From the NCBI GenBank assembly GCA_964533575.1, contig CAZHMG010000003.1:10276-74275 (forward strand): a stretch of 64,000 nt of DNA. The letters run 5' to 3'. Position 1 is the first letter of the stretch; each line of letters starts with the position of its first letter. This document shows, piece after piece, positions 624 through 56,664 of this stretch. This stretch comes from an uncultured Thermoleophilia bacterium. Its GTDB lineage: Bacteria > Actinomycetota > Thermoleophilia > UBA2241. The position numbers and the translations under genes were made by a program. The notes below the pieces were generated by a model, which worked only from the letters and a program-made list of their open reading frames with translations, did not search any database and was not told where the DNA came from.

Positions 624-1121
624 CTACTTCTCGTGCTTCTTGGCCCCGAAGGCCTCCTTGAGCTGGGCCTCATCGTCCTTGGAAAGGTTCGTGCGCACGA
701 CTTTGGCGTTGGAGCCCTGGATTCCCTCAAGGAACTTGTCCTCGGTCACCTGGCCGATGAGGAGGAACCAGCCGGCCTTGCCCGGGGGTACCGCGTCGCC
801 CATCTGCTCGAGGACGGCGTGACTCAGGCCGGACTTCCCCGCCTTGCCCATCAGTGCGCCCATCGCGGCGCCGAACGCCAGGCCCAGGAAGGGGACGAGG
901 AAGAGCATGCCGAAGAGCATGCCCCAGAAAGCGCCGCCCAATGCCCCGGCGCCGACCATGCTATGGCCGTGCTTGACGTGCGGCTTTCCGTCCAGATCGC
1001 GCACGACTTCCGCCGCGTCCTCGAGTTGGACGACCATGTCCTTCTGCATCTGTGCCAGCTTGACGCCGAACCTGTCGGCGGCGGCCTCATCCTCGAAGCC
1101 GAGAACCATCAGTTCGCTCAT
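624..1121 (-). CDS. DUF1269 family membrane protein (general stress protein-like)
   Basis: 165-aa ORF MSELMVLGFEDE...GAGALGGAFWGMLFGMLF...LSKDDEAQLKEAFG. The architecture and motifs match DUF1269 (COG4803) proteins. High GC3. Confidence 0.8.
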   Translation of the reverse strand: MSELMVLGFEDEAAADRFGVKLAQMQKDMVVQLEDAAEVVRDLDGKPHVKHGHSMVGAGALGGAFWGMLFGMLFLVPFLGLAFGAAMGALMGKAGKSGLSHAVLEQMGDAVPPGKAGWFLLIGQVTEDKFLEGIQGSNAKVVRTNLSKDDEAQLKEAFGAKKHEK

Positions 1122-17800: not shown

Positions 17801-17904
17801 GAGGCCGCGGACCCTACCGAGCACAGAAGCCCGTGTCAACGGCCATGTACCGGCGTCCGGACCCTGTTCTATACTCGGTCTTCGTCCTTCGCGATTGTTG
17901 GAGC

Positions 17905-20900
17905 ATGGTGAGTCAGACAGACGTCGGCGAGGCTGGGTCCGTTCCGCGGCTCGAGTTCAGTCTCCCATATGATCCTGCCCGCCTCCTGCGCGCTCGGGTG
18001 CGCTTGCGTGAGTACCTGAGCCATCTGACGACCGAGGAGCACACGGTCGACGAGGTCATTCTCGCGATCATGGAGGCGGCGACCAACGCTCTTCGCCACA
18101 GCGGCGGATCAGGGTCGTTCGACATCAGGCTGTCCGTCGAGGACGACGAGCTGGTGGCCGTCGTTCGGGACGACGGCCAAGGATTCGATCCCTCTGGATT
18201 CCACAGGGACGAAACGCCCGATCCGCTGAGCATCGGCGGGCGGGGCCTCTTCCTCATGACCAGGCTCATGGACGCGGTGGACTTCAGTTTCGACGGAGGG
18301 TGTCAGGTGCTGATGCGCAAGCGCCTGGCCCTGGCCCCGGGATTCACGCCGCTCGGCTTCGCCCGCGCGGCCTCGCCCGAGCGCATGCACGACGGCCTCA
18401 ACGAGCGCCTCATCGAGATGCTGGAAGACGGCGACGAGGCCTTCACCGCCCTCGACTGGGAGTTCCGTTACCTGTACGTCAATCGCGCTTCAGAGCGCCT
18501 GGCGAGGCACTCCCGCCAGGAGGTCATCGGCCGCTGTGTCTTCGACGTCTTTCCGACCATGAAGGAAAGCGTGTACGAGCGCAACTACCGGCTGGCCATG
18601 GAGGAGGGTGTCGTCGCCTATTTCGAGGCGCGGTTCGAGCCGTACGGCGCATGGGACGAGCTGCGCGTCTACCCCGCGCCCTTCGGCATCGCCATCTACT
18701 TCCGTGACATCACGGAGCGCAAGCGGGTGGAGGCCGAGCATCGCGAGCTGCTGAGCGCCGTCGAGCGGCAGCGGGCGCAACTGGGAGCCGTCCTCGAGCA
18801 CCTCAACGAGGGCGTTGTGGTCGTCGATGCCGAGGCCAAGGTGCTCCAGGCGAACGCCGCCGCGCGGCGTATGGGAGGCTTCGACCGGGAGCGCGTCAGC
18901 CGCGTGCCGGACATGTGGTCCGAGTTCGAGTTGCTGACGCTGTCTGGACGGCGCCTCGCGGCGCACGAGCTACCGGGGGAGCGCGTCGCCCGCGGCGAAC
19001 GGTTCTCCGGCCTCGAGCTCACGGTCCGCAATCAGGAGAGTGGACGAGAGTTGCTGGTCAGCTTCGACGGCGTGCCCGTCCGGGACGAGCAGGGCCAGGT
19101 GGCGCTGGGCCTGCTCGCGATTCACGACATCAGCGACCGGAAGCGGGAGGAGGCGCGCGAAGCCCTGCACGGCGCGGTGGTGCGCGGCGTCACGGAGATC
19201 CTTGAGGCCGCGCTCGCCTGTACCGACGAGGAAGCGCTTGGTCGCGTGTGCCTCCGGGTCGCCGAGGGGGTGACGCAGAGCGAGTTCGGCTTCATCGACG
19301 AGATCGTCGAGGGCGACAGGCTGGCCGGCATCGCCATGAGCGACGCGGGGTATGGGGCCTGTTCGGTCGGCGAGCATCCCGGCTTCGTCGAGGGCAAAGC
19401 GAGCGACAAGGCGGCGCTGATACGCGGGCTGCACGGCGAGGTCGTTCGCTGTGGCGAGGCCTTCTACACGAACGATCCGGCGACCCACCCGGCGAGCGAA
19501 GGTCTGCCCGCGGGTCACGTCCCGTTGCACGCTTTCCTGGGTGCGCCCCTCAAGCGCGGTGCCGAGACCATCGGTGTCGTCGCGGTAGGCAATCGCGCCG
19601 GCGGATACGGCGACGATCAGCGCTGGGCGCTGGAGAGCCTTGCCTCCGTGATCGTTCAGGCGATCGATCGCCTGCGGGCACGCGCAGCCCTGCAGGAGTC
19701 CCTGGCGAGAACCCGGGTGCTGGCCAGGATCGCGGCAGCCGCGGCGGGGGCCGACAGTGCAGAACAGGTGTCGGAGGCCGTCCTGGTCGCCGCCGCCCTG
19801 CATCTCGGGCTCAAGGCGGGCAGCGTCAATTGTCTTGACGAGGTGCACGGAGAACTGCAGCGCTGCGCCACGTTCGGCGCCGCCTATGGCGATGATCCGT
19901 CCCTTCGCCTCGCCATCCCCATGGACGACACGTTCAACGTCGGCCGGATGCTGAGCGGGGGGCTGCCGTACATGACTCATGAGAGTCCCGGCCAGTCAGA
20001 GGCCAGTCGAGCGCGTTTCGCAGGGATGGGGTTCGCGGGCGACAGCTGGGTCAAGGTGCCGATCAAGACGAGCGAGAGAGTCCTCGGCGCGATGACCCTC
20101 GTGTTTCCGGGCAAGCGCGCCTTTCATCGGGACGACATCGCCTTCTACGGCGCCGTCGCTGACCAACTCGGCGTCGCGCTGCAACGCGCGCGGCTGGCTG
20201 ACGAACGCGAGACGCAGCGTCGCCTGCTCCAGCGGACGGCGCACCTCAGCCTCACTCTCGACGTGGTGAACGATGCCGTTCGGGGCGTCGTTGAGCCGCT
20301 CTCCGCCTTGGCGCAGGGCGCCCACCTGGCGGCAGCGGCGCTCGGCGCCCGGCTGTCTTCGCTCCACCTCCTCAGCGACGGCACGTGGCAGGAGCTCCGC
20401 AGAGAGAACGACGCCATCCTCTCTCGCCCTTGCGCCGCGGAGGAGGTGCCGTTGGGCGACCTGGTGCGAGAGGTCATGCGCCCTGTGGCATTCTGTCGCT
20501 TACCCGGCGCAGCCGCCCTTCTGAGTGAAGGCGCCCCACGCAGCGAATGCCTGCTCGGCGCGCCGCTTGCCAGCGGCGGTGAGATGCTCGGCGCGGTCTT
20601 CTTCGCCTCAGAGGAGGCGAGGGAGTACACGCAGGCCGAGCTCGACTTCGCACGCAAGGTCGGCGTGGCGCTCGGAGGCGCTCTCCAGAACAGGCAGCTG
20701 TATGTGGCGCTGAACGAGCAACTCGAGCTTTCGCACCTGCTTCTGCGGGCCTCCAAGGTTCTCACGCAGTGGACCGACCTCGCAGCCATGCTCGAGCGCC
20801 TGACCGACGTTCTGCTGCTCTCTGCCCCCGGTTCGCGCGTCGGTGTCGTCCTGGTCCATCCAGAGCGACATCACGCGGAGCTGGCCGCCTCCAAGGGCAT

Positions 20901-22950
20901 CGCTCCCCTCGAGAAGGGCGAGTACCTGCCGGAGGTGCTGCTCGCCGGCAGGGGAGACCTGATCCGTGCGCCGCGCACCGTCGTGGCTGAGTACGATGGT
21001 GACCTGGGGATGTCACGGGCGAAGACAGGCTTCCCGCGTCACAGACTCTTTGTGCCGGTGATGTCACGCGGCCGTCTCATGGGCTTTCTGACCGTCGAGG
21101 CTCCGGAGTCGCGGCAGGGGTTCACCCCCGGTGAGGTGAGGACGGTGGAGGCGATTGCCGACCAGGCCGCCACCGCCATCGAGAACGCACGGCTGTACGA
21201 CGCGGAGGTCGAGGCTCAGCGCCGCGCCGCGCGCGAGCTGGAGACGTCCCAACTGCTCCTCACGACCGCTTCCGCCTTCAGCTCGGAGACGGATCCCAGG
21301 CAACTCCTCAATGTGGTCACCGAAACGCTGATGCGTCGTTTCGACGAGGCCCGCGTGTCGATCACGTTGCGTCATGACGACGTGGAGACGATTGTCGCCA
21401 CCTCCGGCGGCCACGCCTACCCTGTCGGGACCGTCTTCAGGCGCGAGGAGTACTCCAAGCCGGCCCTCGAGGCCATGGAGACGGGCCGCGCCGTCGCAAT
21501 CGACTATGAGGTGCTGCCTCCCGAGGAGCGCGGTACGTCCTGCCAGTACGGCATGTGCAACAGCATTGTCGCTCCGCTCGTCACCCGCGGCCGGACCATC
21601 GGCATCCTGGTCATCGACCAAGCCAACGCTCGCACCGTCTTCACGGAGCGGGATGTGCGTCTTGCCCAGGCCATCGCCGACCAGGCCGCCGTCGCGATCG
21701 ACAACGCCATGATGCTCGACAAGGAGCGCGAGGACGCGCGCTTCGGCGAAGCGCTCGACGAGGCGGGGAAGCTGCTGCACTCTTCGCTGGACGACGACAC
21801 CATTCTGGCCGGCGCGCTGCAGTCCGGGGCACGCGCGCTGCTCGCCATCTCCGGCGTGATCGCAGTCATCGAGCGGGGAAGATGGGTCGCGAAGTGCCAG
21901 GTCGGCTTCTCGCCGGATGTTGTCGGACGCTCGTGGCCTGATGAAACGGTGCCGTTCATGGCGCAGGTTCGGCGACAGCGTGGACCGGCGATCATGAGGG
22001 ACGCGCAGGGCGGCGATAGACATCTGGCCGGGAGCGCGACCCCGCCGTCTGTCGGCTCTACGCTGGCGATTCCGCTGACGGTCGGGGAGGAGGTCGTCGG
22101 CGTGCTCGTCTACAACAAGGCCGAGATCGATGCGTTCTCGGAGGCGGAAGTGACGTTTGCCGGCAGGCTCGCGCGCTCCGTTTCGCTCGCCCTGCAGAAC
22201 GCGCGGCTCTTTGCGAACGAGCACACCATCGCCGAGACGCTGCAGGAGGCGCTGCTCGCCATGCCGGAAGCGGTGCCCGGCTTCACCATCGCCCACACGT
22301 ACCACTCCGCAACAGTGGCGGCTCGGGTGGGCGGTGACTTCTACGACGTCTTCGAGATCGCCGACGACGTCGTCGGCGTCGTCGTGGGCGACATCTCAGG
22401 CAAGGGTCTTGACGCAGCCGTGTTCACCTCAGTGGTCAAGAACGCGATCCGGGCCCAGGCCATGGACGAGGGCAAGTCGCCGGCAGACGTGCTGCGCGTC
22501 GTCAACGAGGTCCTGCTGCGCAGTTCGGCGCCGGAGATCTTCGCTTCCGTCTTCTTCGCGATCATCGAGAACGGGCACGTCGTGTACTGCAATGCAGGCC
22601 ACACGCCGGCACTGCTCCTGCATCACGACCTCAGTCTCGAGTGGTTGCCGCATACATCGCCCGTGGTGGGCGCCTTCCCGGACATGCCCTTTGTTTGCGC
22701 GGAGGCCCGTATCGAGCCCGGCGAGCTGCTCTTCCTCTACACAGACGGGCTCGTCGAGGCGCGCGTGGACGGCGTCCTCTTCGGCGAACACGGGCTCCTC
22801 GCACTGTTCGCCGAGCCGGGGATGAATGACGCCGCCTCGGCGGTGAATCGTGTGTCCGCCGCCGTGGTCGAGTTCGCCGAAGGCCGGCTGTCGGACGACC
22901 TCGCCCTGCTCGCCATCACGCCGGACGGCGCCTCCGGGTTCACGCGTTAG
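17905..22950 (+). CDS. Giant multidomain signalling protein (~1680 aa): N-terminal RsbW-like HATPase_c_2 kinase domain, two PAS, at least four GAF domains, C-terminal PP2C (SpoIIE-type) phosphatase
   Basis: It is a paralog of the 1401..4835 gene (PRLEFSLPYDPARLLRARVRLREYL vs PRLIFRLPPDPSRLLRARERMRDYL). HATPase motifs are EVILAIMEAATNALRHSG...GQGFD...GRGLFLM. The PAS domain contains DWEFRYLYVNRASERLARHSRQEVIGRCVFDVFP. Repeated GAF-like blocks each end ...ALQNARL(Y/F). The C-terminus is VGGDFYDVFEIADDVVGVVVGDISGKGLDAAVFTSVVKNAIRA...YTDGLVEAR. Confidence 0.85.
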   Translation: MVSQTDVGEAGSVPRLEFSLPYDPARLLRARVRLREYLSHLTTEEHTVDEVILAIMEAATNALRHSGGSGSFDIRLSVEDDELVAVVRDDGQGFDPSGFHRDETPDPLSIGGRGLFLMTRLMDAVDFSFDGGCQVLMRKRLALAPGFTPLGFARAASPERMHDGLNERLIEMLEDGDEAFTALDWEFRYLYVNRASERLARHSRQEVIGRCVFDVFPTMKESVYERNYRLAMEEGVVAYFEARFEPYGAWDELRVYPAPFGIAIYFRDITERKRVEAEHRELLSAVERQRAQLGAVLEHLNEGVVVVDAEAKVLQANAAARRMGGFDRERVSRVPDMWSEFELLTLSGRRLAAHELPGERVARGERFSGLELTVRNQESGRELLVSFDGVPVRDEQGQVALGLLAIHDISDRKREEAREALHGAVVRGVTEILEAALACTDEEALGRVCLRVAEGVTQSEFGFIDEIVEGDRLAGIAMSDAGYGACSVGEHPGFVEGKASDKAALIRGLHGEVVRCGEAFYTNDPATHPASEGLPAGHVPLHAFLGAPLKRGAETIGVVAVGNRAGGYGDDQRWALESLASVIVQAIDRLRARAALQESLARTRVLARIAAAAAGADSAEQVSEAVLVAAALHLGLKAGSVNCLDEVHGELQRCATFGAAYGDDPSLRLAIPMDDTFNVGRMLSGGLPYMTHESPGQSEASRARFAGMGFAGDSWVKVPIKTSERVLGAMTLVFPGKRAFHRDDIAFYGAVADQLGVALQRARLADERETQRRLLQRTAHLSLTLDVVNDAVRGVVEPLSALAQGAHLAAAALGARLSSLHLLSDGTWQELRRENDAILSRPCAAEEVPLGDLVREVMRPVAFCRLPGAAALLSEGAPRSECLLGAPLASGGEMLGAVFFASEEAREYTQAELDFARKVGVALGGALQNRQLYVALNEQLELSHLLLRASKVLTQWTDLAAMLERLTDVLLLSAPGSRVGVVLVHPERHHAELAASKGIAPLEKGEYLPEVLLAGRGDLIRAPRTVVAEYDGDLGMSRAKTGFPRHRLFVPVMSRGRLMGFLTVEAPESRQGFTPGEVRTVEAIADQAATAIENARLYDAEVEAQRRAARELETSQLLLTTASAFSSETDPRQLLNVVTETLMRRFDEARVSITLRHDDVETIVATSGGHAYPVGTVFRREEYSKPALEAMETGRAVAIDYEVLPPEERGTSCQYGMCNSIVAPLVTRGRTIGILVIDQANARTVFTERDVRLAQAIADQAAVAIDNAMMLDKEREDARFGEALDEAGKLLHSSLDDDTILAGALQSGARALLAISGVIAVIERGRWVAKCQVGFSPDVVGRSWPDETVPFMAQVRRQRGPAIMRDAQGGDRHLAGSATPPSVGSTLAIPLTVGEEVVGVLVYNKAEIDAFSEAEVTFAGRLARSVSLALQNARLFANEHTIAETLQEALLAMPEAVPGFTIAHTYHSATVAARVGGDFYDVFEIADDVVGVVVGDISGKGLDAAVFTSVVKNAIRAQAMDEGKSPADVLRVVNEVLLRSSAPEIFASVFFAIIENGHVVYCNAGHTPALLLHHDLSLEWLPHTSPVVGAFPDMPFVCAEARIEPGELLFLYTDGLVEARVDGVLFGEHGLLALFAEPGMNDAASAVNRVSAAVVEFAEGRLSDDLALLAITPDGASGFTR

Positions 22951-27478: not shown

Positions 27479-27781
27479 CTAGGCCGCTCTCTCCCGCACC
27501 CGCACCGTCCGGTTGAGCAACTTGAAGAAGTCGCTGGGTTCGCCTTCGCGGTTGATGTCCTGATAGAGGAACTCCAGCTCTTTGTCCTCGAAGATGGTGA
27601 AGAATTCGTCCCACGTGATCTTCTCCAGCCAGGAACCATGGCTGCCGGGGAAGTCGAGACGCAGGCCGCTGGCTTCGTTGCCAGGCCCTGTGCCTCTGAC
27701 TGCCGCGGGCGTCGCGCCTCGCTGTTCGGCCCATCGCCGGATCGTGGCGTGATCCGTCGTGCGTTTCGTCGTCCCGGCCAT
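27479..27781 (-). CDS. Hypothetical conserved small protein (100 aa)
   Basis: MAGTTKRTTDHATIRRWAEQRGATPAAV...WDEFFTIFEDKELEFLYQD... GGGAGG lies upstream of the ATG at complement 27779-27781. It is the last gene of the minus-strand TopIB-Ku cluster. Confidence 0.5.
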   Translation of the reverse strand: MAGTTKRTTDHATIRRWAEQRGATPAAVRGTGPGNEASGLRLDFPGSHGSWLEKITWDEFFTIFEDKELEFLYQDINREGEPSDFFKLLNRTVRVRERAA

Positions 27782-27890
27782 GACCGCCTCCCGCGGAGAT
27801 GACTGCTTCGTTCGGTTCACGTGTAGCCGAGGCGACGGGAATTCAAACGCGTGACGGTTGTCGCCTCTCCGGGCGGACGCAGGGATGCGG

Positions 27891-28736
27891 TCAGCGGGAG
27901 GCATGGCGCTCCGCCATGTCGCCGGCGGCCTCGCCTTGCGTCTGCTGACGTTCGACACTCGCCTTGAGGAGGGTCATGATGTCGACGACCTCGGCCTCCT
28001 GCTCCTCGGCGACGCGGGCGGGCTCCAGCACCTCGTGCTCCTGCCCCGCCTCGACCTTGCGCTTTACGAGGTCCAGCACTTCGTCGCGGTACTGGTCGCG
28101 GTACTGCTCCGGTTGCCACGTCTCGACCATGGCCGAGACCAGCTGCTCGGCGAGGGCGACCTCGCGGTCCTTGACGCCGAGGGCCTCGAGATCCTCATCG
28201 GGAATCTCGAGCTCGGCGGTCCCGCGCAGCTCATGCGCGTAGCGCAGCTGCTCGAGCACCAGCACGGTACCGACGGGGAGCACGGCGGCGAGGTACTCCT
28301 TGGTGCGCATGACGATCTTGGCGATAGCCACATGGCGGCTGCGGCGGAGCGCCTCGCGCAGGAGGGCGTACCCCTTTTGGCCCCCCTGTGTGGGGACGAC
28401 GTAGTAGGGCCGGTCGAAGTAGCGAGGATCTATCTCGTCGGTGGAGACGAACGCCTGGATGTCGATCGTGTGGGTGGCCTTGGGATCGACGGCGTCGAGC
28501 TCCTCCTCGCTGACCACCACATACCGGTCTGGCGCGTACTCGTAGCCCTTGATGACGTCGCCCCACTCCACCTCTCGCCCGGTCTGTTCGTTGATGCGGT
28601 GCTCCCGTACGGGGGTGAGCGTCGAACGGTCGAGCTGACGAAAACGCAGCGCATCGCGGCTCTCGGCCGCGTAGAGCGCTACCGGCACGTTGACGAGCCC
28701 GAAGCTTATGGCGCCTTTCCAGATCGGACGAGGCAT
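27891..28736 (-). CDS. ku: Ku protein (non-homologous end joining DNA-binding protein)
   Basis: MPRPIWKGAISFGLVNVPVALYAAESRDALRFRQL...YFDRPYYVVP... is the canonical bacterial Ku core with an acidic/basic C-terminal tail. The start is at ATG complement 28734-28736 inside the longer ORF 27891..29162. Confidence 0.9.
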   Translation of the reverse strand: MPRPIWKGAISFGLVNVPVALYAAESRDALRFRQLDRSTLTPVREHRINEQTGREVEWGDVIKGYEYAPDRYVVVSEEELDAVDPKATHTIDIQAFVSTDEIDPRYFDRPYYVVPTQGGQKGYALLREALRRSRHVAIAKIVMRTKEYLAAVLPVGTVLVLEQLRYAHELRGTAELEIPDEDLEALGVKDREVALAEQLVSAMVETWQPEQYRDQYRDEVLDLVKRKVEAGQEHEVLEPARVAEEQEAEVVDIMTLLKASVERQQTQGEAAGDMAERHASR

Positions 28737-28890
28737 TCGTGGGCCTTTCGTTGCGTCAGCGATGGTGCCTGTGACACACAGGCTTCCCGCCCGCAGGATG
28801 GGACAAACGGGACGCGAACGAGGACACTCGCGGCTGAGGCCGAGCGGGGCGGGAGACTCAGCCTGGCCGCGGGGCGGCCCGGCTCGCGCA

Positions 28891-29268
28891 CTACTTGTGC
28901 AGCTCGTCGTGCACGTGGTCGAGGAACGCTTGGCCGGCGCGCTCGCTGAGGAGACCAGCCACCTGCTCGGTGGCGCCGCGATCCTCAAAGGATGGAAGAC
29001 GCAGCGGGGCGCTTCTGAAGCCGCCCCGTTCGCGCACCACGCCGAGGTCGGAATGTCCGAGATCGCCCAAGGCGGCAACGGCGTCGAGCATGAGCGTTCG
29101 CTCGCGCTGGCCGTCACCCGCGTCGCGCGTCTCCATGCACATGAGGTACACGACCTGGTCATGCAGCAGGTAGGCGGGCTTGCCGGTCAGCAGTCGCCGC
29201 AGCGCTGCTGCCGGGACGTTGTCCACGGCCCGCTCCTGCGGATAGTCGAGAAGCTGCCACTTGCCCAT
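28891..29268 (-). CDS. Hypothetical protein (125 aa) between hemerythrin and Ku
   Basis: MGKWQLLDYPQERAVDNVPAAALRRLL... AGGAGG lies 6 nt upstream of the ATG. No family recognised. Confidence 0.5.
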   Translation of the reverse strand: MGKWQLLDYPQERAVDNVPAAALRRLLTGKPAYLLHDQVVYLMCMETRDAGDGQRERTLMLDAVAALGDLGHSDLGVVRERGGFRSAPLRLPSFEDRGATEQVAGLLSERAGQAFLDHVHDELHK

Positions 29269-29365
29269 GTTCGCCTCCTGCTGATGATCTTGGACTCGTC
29301 GTGCGTGTCGCCGAAAGCGGTCCGGCGGCCGGTTCAGGGGGAGGTCGGCCGCCGGACCGCAACCG

Positions 29366-30967
29366 TCAGGCTGCTCTCTTGCGCTCCTCGAACCTCTCGC
29401 CGAGCTCCTCGGCCTGCTGCTGGTCCACGATCTGGCGTGCCGCCGGGAAGAACTCGCCTTCCTCCTCCTCCACGTGGTGCTGGACCAGGTCCGTGAGCAC
29501 CTTGAGTTTGGCGCTCCACTTCTCGTCGTCGTCGCCGCGCGCCAGCTCGCCGAGCACTCGCTTGGTCACTTTGTGTTCCTCGTACCCCTCGAGCACCAGT
29601 TTACGCGTCGCCTCCTCTTTCTCGAAGCGCTTGTACACCACCTTCTCCTCAGCTTCCATATGGCTGCTGAGCTCCTTCTCGAGCTTGTCGAAGATGCGCT
29701 TCTGCTTGCCCTTCTCGGCAAGCTGTTCGAGCAGGTCATTGACCTCGGCGTGCTCCTGTGTCAGCTCCTCGAAGATGTCCATCCGTCCTCCTCCGTCATC
29801 GTCAGGATGCCTAGAATCGGTACCCTCGACGGAGAGGCCGTTAACGCGGTCGGCCGTTCCCGGCGGGCGCGCGAAGGGGGCTACACAGGCTTCGAACCGC
29901 TGCAGCAGGTCGAGCACGGCGCGTTCCGCCACATGCTGAGCCTCGAGCGGCAGGGGGTAGGAATCACCGCCGAGGAGGGAGTCCGGGAGTTCGGCGGTCT
30001 CTCCCCGCAGAAATGCCTCCGTGACGTATGGGTGGATGTACGAGGATCGTGAGACCGCCGGGGTGTTGCCCAGTTGCTGGGCGACGTCCCGGACGACCCC
30101 GGGGATCGGGCTTCGCCTGCCCCGGGCGGCGCGGGCGGCACGCGCCAGTCCGAGCGCCGCGAGGACCGTGGCGTGCCATGTCCTGAAATCCTTGGCCGTG
30201 AAGGACCGGCCTGCCGACTGCTTGATGTAGTCGTTGATGTCGGAGGAGCGCACATCCCGCCATGCGCGATCGTCGTCCATGTAGGCAAGGAGCTCCTCGC
30301 CGCCCCCGCGCCGCAGCTCGAGGCGCCAGATGATGTGGCGCACATCATGGTCGTCTATGCTCACCGTCCGCTCGATGCCGCCTTTGGCGTCATAGCTGAA
30401 CCGGACGATTCCCGAACGCGTCACGGTCACGTGATCCCTGAGGATCGTGGCCAGGCCGAAGGTCGCGTTCTGGGCGGCGTAGCTCTCGCCGCCGACACGG
30501 AAGAGACCCAGATCGAGGAGGCGAACCGCGGCCGCCAGCACCTGCTCACGGCTCATGTCGTTGCGCGCCAGATCCTGTGCCACCTGCCGGCGCAGCGACG
30601 GCAGCGCCTCGGCGAAGGGGATCATGCGGCCGAACTTCTCCTCGCTGCGGCAGTCCCGCCAGCGCTCGTGATAGAGGTACTGGCGGCGACCGGCCGCATC
30701 CGTTCCCATCGCTTGGATGTGCCCGTTGCGCCAGGGGCAGATCCACACGTGTTCCCACGCCGGCGGGATCACCAGGGCTTCGATGCGGGCGAGCGTTGTC
30801 CCGTCGACGACGAGCAGCCCGTCGGCGTCCAGGTAGTCGAAGCCGTCGCCGCGACGGACGCGGCGCAGCCCCGGGAGTGACGGGTCGCTGCGCCGCAGGC
30901 GGCAGCGATCCGGCCGTTTGCGACGTGCCCGCCTCTCCTCATCACTCTGAGCTCCGCCGTGCGCCAC
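29366..30967 (-). CDS. Type IB DNA topoisomerase (bacterial TopIB) reading through in-frame into a C-terminal hemerythrin-like domain. The hemerythrin part (29366..29782) has its own SD+ATG.
   Basis: TopIB motifs are GLRRVRRGDGFDYLDADG, VIPPAWEHVWICP, FRVGGESYAAQNATFG, FTAKDFRTWHAT and the active-site SRSSYIHP (SKxxY). There is no stop codon before MDIFEELTQEHAEVNDLL...HHVEEEEGEFFP (hemerythrin HHE-type). GGAGGAGG sits 4 nt upstream of that internal ATG and also encodes DDDGGGR. The TopIB start (GTG at complement 30965-30967) is uncertain. Confidence 0.65.
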   Translation of the reverse strand: MAHGGAQSDEERRARRKRPDRCRLRRSDPSLPGLRRVRRGDGFDYLDADGLLVVDGTTLARIEALVIPPAWEHVWICPWRNGHIQAMGTDAAGRRQYLYHERWRDCRSEEKFGRMIPFAEALPSLRRQVAQDLARNDMSREQVLAAAVRLLDLGLFRVGGESYAAQNATFGLATILRDHVTVTRSGIVRFSYDAKGGIERTVSIDDHDVRHIIWRLELRRGGGEELLAYMDDDRAWRDVRSSDINDYIKQSAGRSFTAKDFRTWHATVLAALGLARAARAARGRRSPIPGVVRDVAQQLGNTPAVSRSSYIHPYVTEAFLRGETAELPDSLLGGDSYPLPLEAQHVAERAVLDLLQRFEACVAPFARPPGTADRVNGLSVEGTDSRHPDDDGGGRMDIFEELTQEHAEVNDLLEQLAEKGKQKRIFDKLEKELSSHMEAEEKVVYKRFEKEEATRKLVLEGYEEHKVTKRVLGELARGDDDEKWSAKLKVLTDLVQHHVEEEEGEFFPAARQIVDQQQAEELGERFEERKRAA

Positions 30968-31130
30968 AGCCAGCCGTCGCCTTCCGATGCTCGTCGTCGC
31001 CGAGGAACTTCCCGAGCGTGGGAGGGGCGAAACAGCACGCGGTGCCTGCGCCGGCAGCCGGTGAGGAAATGGTTTCGCCGCGCTCCGCGCGGGAACCTCA
31101 CGAGAGGTGCAGCTGTGAAGGAGGTGCAAG

Positions 31131-31196
31131 ATGTACATCGGAGTCGGAGCAGCCGTCGTGATTCTGATCATCATCCTGTTGATCATCCTGCTCTAG
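31131..31196 (+). CDS. Candidate 21-aa hydrophobic mini-protein (type I toxin-like or small membrane peptide)
   Basis: ATG MYIGVGAAVVILIIILLIILL TAG. AAGGAGGTG SD lies 4-5 nt upstream. It is an AT-rich codon island in a 70% GC genome. Not in the ORF track because it is below the size cutoff. Confidence 0.3.
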   Translation: MYIGVGAAVVILIIILLIILL

Positions 31197-31344
31197 GAGC
31201 GAGACGGCACGGTGACAGGCCCATCTGCTTGATCTCGATGAAGGAGAAACGATGGACTGGAACATCATTGAGGGCAAGTGAAGCCCACAAACGCGCCGAC
31301 GACCGGGCTCGTCGGCAGGCGGCGTGGTGCAGGGTCGAGGATGA

Positions 31345-31387
31345 GGGACACACCAGGCCCGCCCGCCGGGCGGGCCTGGTGTGTCCC
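31345..31387. repeat. 43-bp perfect palindrome (21-bp arms), candidate stem-loop, bidirectional terminator or protein-binding site
   Basis: gggacacaccaggcccgcccg c cgggcgggcctggtgtgtccc. Its reverse complement is identical except for the central base. Confidence 0.5.
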
Positions 31388-31466
31388 TCGTGTGACGGGA
31401 AGGTCACCCTTTGGCGGCCGTCCGTGTGATAGGGAAGACCGCCATTTGGCGGCACGATGGGGGTCT

Positions 31467-31495
31467 TGCGCAAGTCGCGCTGCCCTGCTATCATC
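31467..31495 (+). promoter_or_regulatory. Putative sigma-70-type promoter for the downstream sigma-factor gene
   Basis: TTGCGC, a 17-nt spacer, then TATCAT, ending about 78 nt upstream of the GTG start at 31574. Confidence 0.3.
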
Positions 31496-31573
31496 ACACG
31501 TTCACTTCGCACCGCTCCGCCGTGCGACGTTTCTTGACGACTGCAGCCCCGCTCGGGGCAGGAGATAGAGCGC

Positions 31574-32686
<1,113 letters not shown>

Positions 32687-56587: not shown

Positions 56588-56664
56588 GCCCTCGTAGCTC
56601 AGGGGATTAGAGCGCGCGCCTCCGGAGCGCGAGGTCGAAGGTTCGAATCCTTCCGGGGGCACCA
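56588..56664 (+). tRNA. tRNA-Arg (anticodon CCG)
   Basis: GCCCTCGTAGCTCAGGGGATTAGAGCGCGCGCCTCCGGAGCGCGAGGTCGAAGGTTCGAATCCTTCCGGGGGCACCA. The acceptor stem has 7 bp (one G-U), plus a D arm, an anticodon stem cgcgc/gcgcg with loop cuCCGga, and a T arm gaagg-TTCGAAT-ccttc. CCA is encoded. Confidence 0.9.

Follow-up and report, generated by a model that had tools for sequence, protein, structure and literature searches.

Does a bacterial type IB topoisomerase (TopIB) whose reading frame runs without a stop into a hemerythrin-like domain (Hr) represent an enzyme fitted with its own sensor, or two neighbouring genes that have simply run together? The question is raised by a minus-strand open reading frame (ORF) within a 64-kb stretch of DNA from an uncultured Thermoleophilia bacterium (contig CAZHMG010000003.1; the whole stretch that was analysed is hereafter called the window), in which the TopIB sequence continues through a 35-codon linker into a complete Hr domain. 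The fusion is, in our judgement, probably real and specific to one lineage, having arisen when TopIB lost its stop; free Hr would still be made from its own signals, and the merger would be neutral. The anatomy of the ORF, the synteny of the two genes in relatives, the conservation of the Hr expression signals and the absence of coding constraint in the linker are all observed directly. The coordinates of the features are collected in Table 1.

Table 1. Features of the TopIB-Hr locus and its neighbourhood in the window.
Feature	Position	Strand	Remarks
Fused TopIB-linker-hemerythrin ORF	29366..30967	minus	533 aa plus stop; from frame scan and Pfam; same as database protein P0001 and Logan contig L001
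Top1B_N_bact domain (PF21338)	30698..30844	minus	79.1 bits versus cutoff 27
TopIB catalytic core (PF01028)	30044..30658	minus	87.3 bits versus cutoff 23.7
TopIB motif KDFRTWHAT	30193..30167	minus	
TopIB motif SRSSYIHP	30052..30029	minus	catalytic Tyr at 30040..30038
35-codon linker CVAPFARPPGTADRVNGLSVEGTDSRHPDDDGGGR	29783..29887	minus	putative former TopIB tail and intergenic spacer; aligns to relatives' spacers
Internal SigF/sigma-B-type promoter-like motif for Hr, GTTA-N16-GGGTA	29821..29845	minus	38 nt upstream of Hr ATG
Shine-Dalgarno sequence GGAGGAGG	29787..29794	minus	4 nt before Hr ATG
Predicted fusion junction peptide ...DDDGGGRMDIFEEL		minus	free Hr would start MDIFEEL
Hemerythrin-like HHE domain (Hr)	29366..29782	minus	138 aa from own ATG; PF01814, 58.2 bits versus 25.3
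Perfect 13-bp GC hairpin	29319..29358	minus	8 nt past Hr stop; terminator-like end of the unit
Promoter-like motif before TopIB, GTTT-N16-GGGAA	31009..31033	minus	41 nt upstream of GTG; predicted site
Ku gene (Met at 28736)	27891..28808	minus	GTTT-N16-GGGAA at 28808..28784, 47 nt upstream
orf125, conserved hypothetical	28891..29268	minus	60% identical to 125-aa gene upstream of Ku in L083
Primary-type sigma-70 gene	31574..32686	plus	syntenic neighbour

Read on the minus strand, a single stop-free frame of 533 codons extends from a GTG at 30967 to a TGA at 29368..29366, and the Top1B_N_bact, Topoisom_I and Hemerythrin domains of Pfam each exceed their gathering score in its product. The first-pass annotation of this DNA had described an uninterrupted frame from TopIB through a linker into hemerythrin, and this is borne out, with the motifs KDFRTWHAT and SRSSYIHP lying where they had been placed; the single ORF stands, and only its length, given as 534 aa, has to be corrected to 533 aa. 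The same annotation had pointed to a perfect Shine-Dalgarno (SD) sequence, formed by the linker codons themselves, four nucleotides before the Hr start. It is found as described: the 3' end of the linker reads gac gat gac gga gga gga cgg, and GGAGGAGG at 29794..29787 is followed by four nucleotides and then by the ATG at 29782. An extension of the frame upstream to an ATG at 31186, which would give an ORF of 606 aa, was considered and rejected. The 606-aa product is not on record and the G+C content at third codon positions (GC3) of its first ~90 codons is 0.6–0.75, as in non-coding sequence, which favours GTG 30967 or a start close to it.

An open frame of this kind could conceivably be produced by a sequencing or assembly artefact, with a stop codon or frameshift masked somewhere between TopIB and Hr. 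The fusion occurs once only, in an assembly of metagenome type, and odd one-off TopIB fusions (with SelA_N, GT4 or DUF7218) are seen among metagenome gene calls. The 533-aa protein is, however, identical to database entries in both an NCBI record and Logan, and the Logan contig (run SRR13723394) matches the window with 100% identity over 2695 bp (29315..32009), the whole junction included, although the two assemblies may rest on the same reads. A contig from an independent sample (L172, run SRR22452308) is the closest relative, with a TopIB 80% identical to that of the window, and it is stop-free in the same frame across the 25 of 35 linker codons that can be aligned, up to a shared GTDS. Because the second assembly is identical and L172 is likewise open over the aligned linker, the worry about a stop hidden near the junction is largely answered. 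The junction DNA is real, and an artefact is very improbable.

Both parts of the encoded protein appear to be intact. In the TopIB part the catalytic arginine (FRVGG), lysine (DAKGG), second arginine (KDFRTW), asparagine (LGNTP) and tyrosine (SSYIHP) are all present, and the match to Deinococcus radiodurans TopIB (PDB code: 2f4q) has an E-value of 1e-47. The R-K-R-N-Y residues are aligned with chain positions 137, 174, 239, 280 and 289 of 2f4q, which we take to be the catalytic residues of that enzyme, and the TopIB domain looks functional. With the poxvirus-like type IB enzyme of D. radiodurans (PDB codes: 2f4q, 3m4a) the window protein shares the arrangement of an N-terminal Top1B_N_bact domain and a core, the same pentad, and a core length equal to that of thousands of homologues (~340–360 aa). 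In contrast to this type of enzyme, it carries a C-terminal extension of ~175 residues, made up of the linker and Hr, that is seen in no other listed homologue.

The Hr part contains the ligand motif H11, H41xxxE45, H70 and H103xxxE107. Across 11 aligned Hr sequences H11, H41, E45, H70, H102/H103 and E106/E107 are invariant, and the matching ligand columns are still invariant in an alignment of 53 Hr sequences. The domain is modelled by AlphaFold2 as a helical bundle with predicted local distance difference test (pLDDT) scores of 91–98. A Foldseek comparison of this model with the PDB, in which helical bundles discriminate poorly, gave no match at E<=0.001 and only weak matches to the FBXL5 Hr and PF0695; by profile, the nearest solved relative is PDB 6q09 (E 5e-7). 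The Hr domain is apparently intact and looks functional, and di-iron binding is predicted.

The 6q09 structure is that of the Mycobacterium kansasii hemerythrin-like protein HLP, and this protein and MsmHr of Mycobacterium smegmatis (MSMEG_2415) share with the window Hr the HHE domain, the H/HxxxE ligands and a size of ~140 aa. A SigF-type promoter lies upstream of MsmHr as well as of the window Hr, in the latter case as a motif only. The sequence kinship with the mycobacterial hemerythrin-like proteins is nevertheless distant, and the window Hr differs from them in being linked to TopIB and Ku and in that it would also be translated as a TopIB tail. Among NCBIfam models the best match of Hr, nearly full-length, is the family of PA2171, a ribosome-binding persister protein (NF053874; PMC13041383), and both proteins are stress- or dormancy-associated. 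Membership in that family was considered and rejected, as the window Hr scores 71.4 bits, far under the curated cutoff of 190 for this equivalog model.

Among the homologues listed, the fusion is all but unique. The first-pass annotation had proposed to look for the same arrangement in homologues, and among the 120 that score best against the full product PF01814 is found in the window's own protein only; the remainder are 327–474 aa long, mostly ~340–390 aa. An exhaustive HMMER scan took in 1.84 billion cluster representatives, and no member of its top 150 extends over the Hr part, although the representatives are clustered at 50% identity and fusions may hide under TopIB-only representatives, as the window's own does. 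For the Hr part, every one of the 120 best homologues is a free-standing protein (~97–206 aa), and scans of genome and metagenome contigs for Hr returned distant Hr genes only (<=54% identity), none of them adjoining TopIB. As the protein search with Hr alone missed even the 533-aa fusion of the window, it is no valid test for long, distant fusions; short-domain word-index searches can miss long multi-domain proteins. Literature searches found no paper combining 'topoisomerase IB' with 'hemerythrin' and nothing useful by way of surveys of hemerythrin domain fusions. Other one-off TopIB fusions among metagenome gene calls comprise a truncated TopIB with a SelA N-terminal domain (P0258), a GT4 glycosyltransferase with TopIB (P0284) and TopIB with DUF7218 (P0024).

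In three lineages that are probably Thermoleophilia, the closest Hr proteins (59–72% identity) have a gene of their own directly after TopIB. The gene order is sigma70(-), CsbD(-), orf125, Ku, TopIB, Hr in the first (L083, L085 and L086), Ku, TopIB, Hr in the second (L002 and L088), and TopIB, Hr in the third (L173). The two genes are separated by spacers of 72 nt (L083 4929..5000), 135 nt (L002 2838..2972) and 150 nt (L173 932..1081), each a multiple of three and each free of a second in-frame stop. Among related contigs, TopIB is also found without Hr, and Hr without TopIB. Because the window linker aligns with the spacers of the relatives and preserves the same spacing of promoter motif, SD and ATG, it is taken to be the former TopIB-Hr spacer.

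The alignment of the junction (L083/86, L002/88, L173 and L172) shows conserved islands, corresponding to the promoter motif, within otherwise diverged sequence. The consensus used, GTTT-N14-19-GGGTA, was taken from the M. smegmatis SigF regulon (PMC4694148), and the sites described here are predicted, not mapped. At the same position relative to the Hr ATG as in the window, the motif reads GTTA-N16-GGGAA in L083/86 and GTTA-N15-GGGTA in L002/88 and L173; in L172 it reads GTTA-N16-GGGTA, with no distance to be given as the ATG is deleted. The motif is thereby conserved at the orthologous site in five relative loci, from three unfused lineages, and in L172, with diverged flanks. Wherever the Hr ATG survives it lies 35–39 nt from the motif, with the SD between them, and SD-like AGGAG or AAGGAG is present at the equivalent place in every relative. 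Within the 64-kb window GTTA-N14-18-GGGTA has this single match, against 0.06 expected. All 10 close Hr homologues start at the same Met as the internal ATG of the window. The internal SD and ATG are thus no chance match but the start that Hr had in the ancestor as a gene of its own, and the conserved SigF/sigma-B-type promoter within the linker suggests that Hr probably has its own mRNA besides its own start.

The linker itself appears to evolve like non-coding DNA, with the promoter elements as its only conserved bases. Its GC3 is 0.55–0.75, versus 0.8–1.0 in the TopIB core and Hr, and its amino-acid identity between the window and L172 is 32%. Differences between window and L172 at codon positions 1/2/3 amount to 0.14/0.09/0.43 for TopIB (295 codons) and 0.13/0.07/0.33 for Hr (112 codons), and to 0.48/0.36/0.32, with no pattern by codon position, for the linker, where the test has low power with only 25 alignable codons. 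AlphaFold2 assigns the linker a pLDDT of ~50 and no secondary structure, and disorder is thereby predicted for it. RNA folding of the linker (z = 0.23) gave no hidden terminator or switch, and a scan of 27500..31700 for sigma-70 promoters and intrinsic terminators found nothing relevant. The spacers of the relatives likewise show no sign of coding constraint as judged from their sequences: their GC3 is ~0.62, and L002 and L088 differ in the spacer by one synonymous and three non-synonymous changes. The openness of the frame after stop loss is no more than chance would give, as the linker has 35 codons at ~68% GC and the relatives' spacers are stop-free too. A stop could arise in the 105-nt linker through some six different single-base changes, and by our own estimate the chance of its staying open at the observed divergence is about one half per lineage, so that the persistence of the open frame is no evidence of selection.

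In L172 the promoter is kept, but ~95 nt beyond it (about 1040..1100) are missing, and with them the SD, the ATG and some 27 codons from the start of Hr, that for ligand H11 among them. The TopIB frame of L172 then stops out of frame within the Hr remnant. As the remnant still shows a purifying pattern, the deletion would be either recent or an error of the Logan assembly. If it is real, the L172 lineage has presumably lost the Hr start and the first helix.

These observations bear on the suggestion, made in the first-pass annotation, of a redox- or O2-sensing topoisomerase as a novel regulatory arrangement, that is, of an adapted fusion in which the C-terminal di-iron Hr is a tethered sensor of O2, NO, H2O2 or iron that regulates or localises TopIB. 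Sensors that couple a hemerythrin-like domain covalently to an output domain are well established, among them the DcrH chemoreceptor, the Bhr-DGC diguanylate cyclase and FBXL5, and the window protein resembles these in architecture. Both of its domains are intact, the open linker is common to the window and L172, and the adjacency of TopIB and Hr is kept in five lineages, the pair having moved jointly when the cluster of the window was rearranged. In the DcrH, Bhr-DGC and FBXL5 families, however, the fusion is conserved across orthologues, whereas in the present case only one lineage has it and no other listed homologue shares it. The linker shows no sign of coding constraint, and the promoter, SD and ATG of Hr are all still in place. 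The sister lineages retain two genes, related contigs have TopIB only or Hr only, and the Hr start and first ligand helix are deleted in L172. Nothing points to the tethered Hr controlling TopIB; the sensor design is unsupported, and adaptation of the fusion to such a purpose is unlikely.

A neighbour-joining tree of TopIB places the window beside the unfused L085/86, with the group of L002, L173 and P0004 as their sister and the standalone TopIBs outside. The outgroup TopIBs are all standalone and end ~10–25 residues past the conserved LL motif. A single stop loss on the window/L172 branch would be the simplest history. The reverse course can also be envisaged, in which an ancestral fusion was later split by stops, or in which the relatives use a leaky stop whose low-level readthrough has been hard-wired in the window. 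It would account for the spacers of 72, 135 and 150 nt being in frame and without a second stop, an arrangement in which one point mutation would recreate the fusion in each unfused lineage, because Hr lies in frame behind a single stop. The -35 GTT is moreover an in-frame Val codon in every lineage, and the stop contexts of the relatives are TAG-A, TGA-C and TGA-A; in E. coli, UGA-C terminates translation weakly. The other frames of the spacers, however, also contain only 0–1 stops, and neither the spacer GC3 nor the L002/L088 substitutions given above are coding-like. Free-standing Hr homologues elsewhere all begin at the same Met, standalone TopIB homologues number in the thousands, and on the tree one stop loss is more parsimonious than two gains. 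An ancestral fusion or a leaky-stop design is on this evidence quite unlikely. Similarly improbable is a functional covalent TopIB-Hr, in which the di-iron domain would bring an O2, peroxide, NO or iron signal to a stress-induced DNA-relaxing enzyme working beside Ku. The relatives would then produce the fusion at low level by readthrough, and the window would be the hard-wired form of a conserved two-product locus.

Several points do weigh against a real and neutral fusion by stop loss. The Logan and deposited assemblies were possibly built from the same reads. Hr lies in frame behind a single stop in three of three unfused lineages, for which the probability by chance is ~1/27 to 1/9; this is unexpected under pure neutrality, but suggestive only. 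The frame is open in L172 as well over 25 of 35 linker codons, so that the open state may predate the split from L172, and a state that has lasted since then would not be strongly deleterious and could be useful. A disordered tether is also able to evolve fast even if it is functional.

The wider setting of the locus is a conserved cluster comprising a divergent primary sigma gene, CsbD, orf125, Ku, TopIB and Hr (window 27891..32686; L083 441..5414; L002 853..3401). The order in the window is primary sigma, TopIB-Hr, orf125, Ku, the TopIB-Hr pair being shifted upstream of orf125-Ku. In the relatives Ku adjoins TopIB; in L002 the stop and the start are separated by 2 nt. The orf125 product, which has no Pfam match, is encoded always in this cluster. 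The sigma gene of the window shares a 90% cluster with 'MAG: RpoD [Thermoleophilia bacterium]' and with the L083 sigma, which places the window in Thermoleophilia-like bacteria. The hairpin past the Hr stop folds with -47.8 kcal/mol over 86 nt (z = -4.8; 0 of 200 shuffles as good), with a weak U tract.

Motifs of the form GTTN-N15-18-GGGWA precede every unit of the cluster (L083 2323, 2898 and 4941 on the plus strand and 2214 on the minus strand; L002 777 and 2910). Besides Hr, they stand before Ku in the window and three relative loci, before orf125 and CsbD in L083, and before TopIB in the window only, where TopIB would need its own promoter because it is no longer downstream of Ku. A loose form of the motif occurs 9 times window-wide against 4.3±2.2 expected; as this enrichment is only about twofold, the case for promoters is built on position and conservation and not on counts. 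A group-3 sigma gene was not found within the 64-kb window. An outgroup Thermoleophilaceae contig (L175) has the motif ~36 nt before its TopIB ATG at 1672, and a group-3 sigma gene 1.5 kb away. The SigF regulon of M. smegmatis includes a 'type I topoisomerase' (MSMEG_1784), the hemerythrin HHE protein MSMEG_2415 and Dps (PMC4694148), and MsmHr has been linked to the SigF peroxide response (PMC4295536). Elsewhere in the window there is a very long ORF of 1705 aa (17833..22950, plus strand) and a tRNA gene (56588..56661, plus strand), which is the only Rfam match at the gathering threshold.

According to the reading that we prefer, fusion by stop-codon loss, the ancestor would have had TopIB followed by Hr, adjacent and on the same strand, in a stress-type cluster with Ku, orf125 and CsbD. 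In the window lineage the TopIB frame would have come to read through the former spacer into Hr, with the promoter, the SD GGAGGAGG and the ATG retained. Under the control of a stress sigma factor, TopIB would be transcribed from 31033..31009 and Hr from 29845..29821. The short transcript would yield free 138-aa Hr, to which initiation within the long transcript would probably add, while ribosomes that start at the TopIB codon would make a 533-aa TopIB with a disordered tether of ~35 residues and a C-terminal Hr. From the sequence we infer that the promoter fires, that the cell accumulates both products and that it has in the fusion something neutral or tolerated, not an adapted redox switch. 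The first-pass proposal of a TopIB-Hr fusion together with an independently translated Hr from the same DNA accordingly holds at the level of sequence signals, in that the polypeptide is encoded and the promoter, SD and ATG of Hr are kept.

The event resembles fusions by stop-codon loss of the 'Rosetta-stone' type, in which the neighbours are separate in relatives and lie on the same strand, and in which the linker corresponds by homology to an in-frame spacer. Unlike ordinary fusions of this type, the window ORF still contains the downstream gene's promoter, SD and ATG, so that the locus would still act as two genes too.

The fusion itself matters little, as two neighbouring genes seem to have merged recently, and probably neutrally, to yield a new domain combination from a known kind of event. 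The locus is nonetheless a clear case from nature in which the full set of expression signals of a downstream gene has come to lie inside an ORF. More useful is the Thermoleophilia-like cluster of Ku, TopIB, Hr, CsbD and orf125 with its SigF/sigma-B-type motifs, which match the SigF dependence reported for the 'type I topoisomerase' and the hemerythrin of M. smegmatis. Bacterial TopIB has, to our knowledge, no established physiological role. A module for DNA maintenance in stress or dormancy offers a testable context for that role, on which the linkage between Ku and TopIB may bear.

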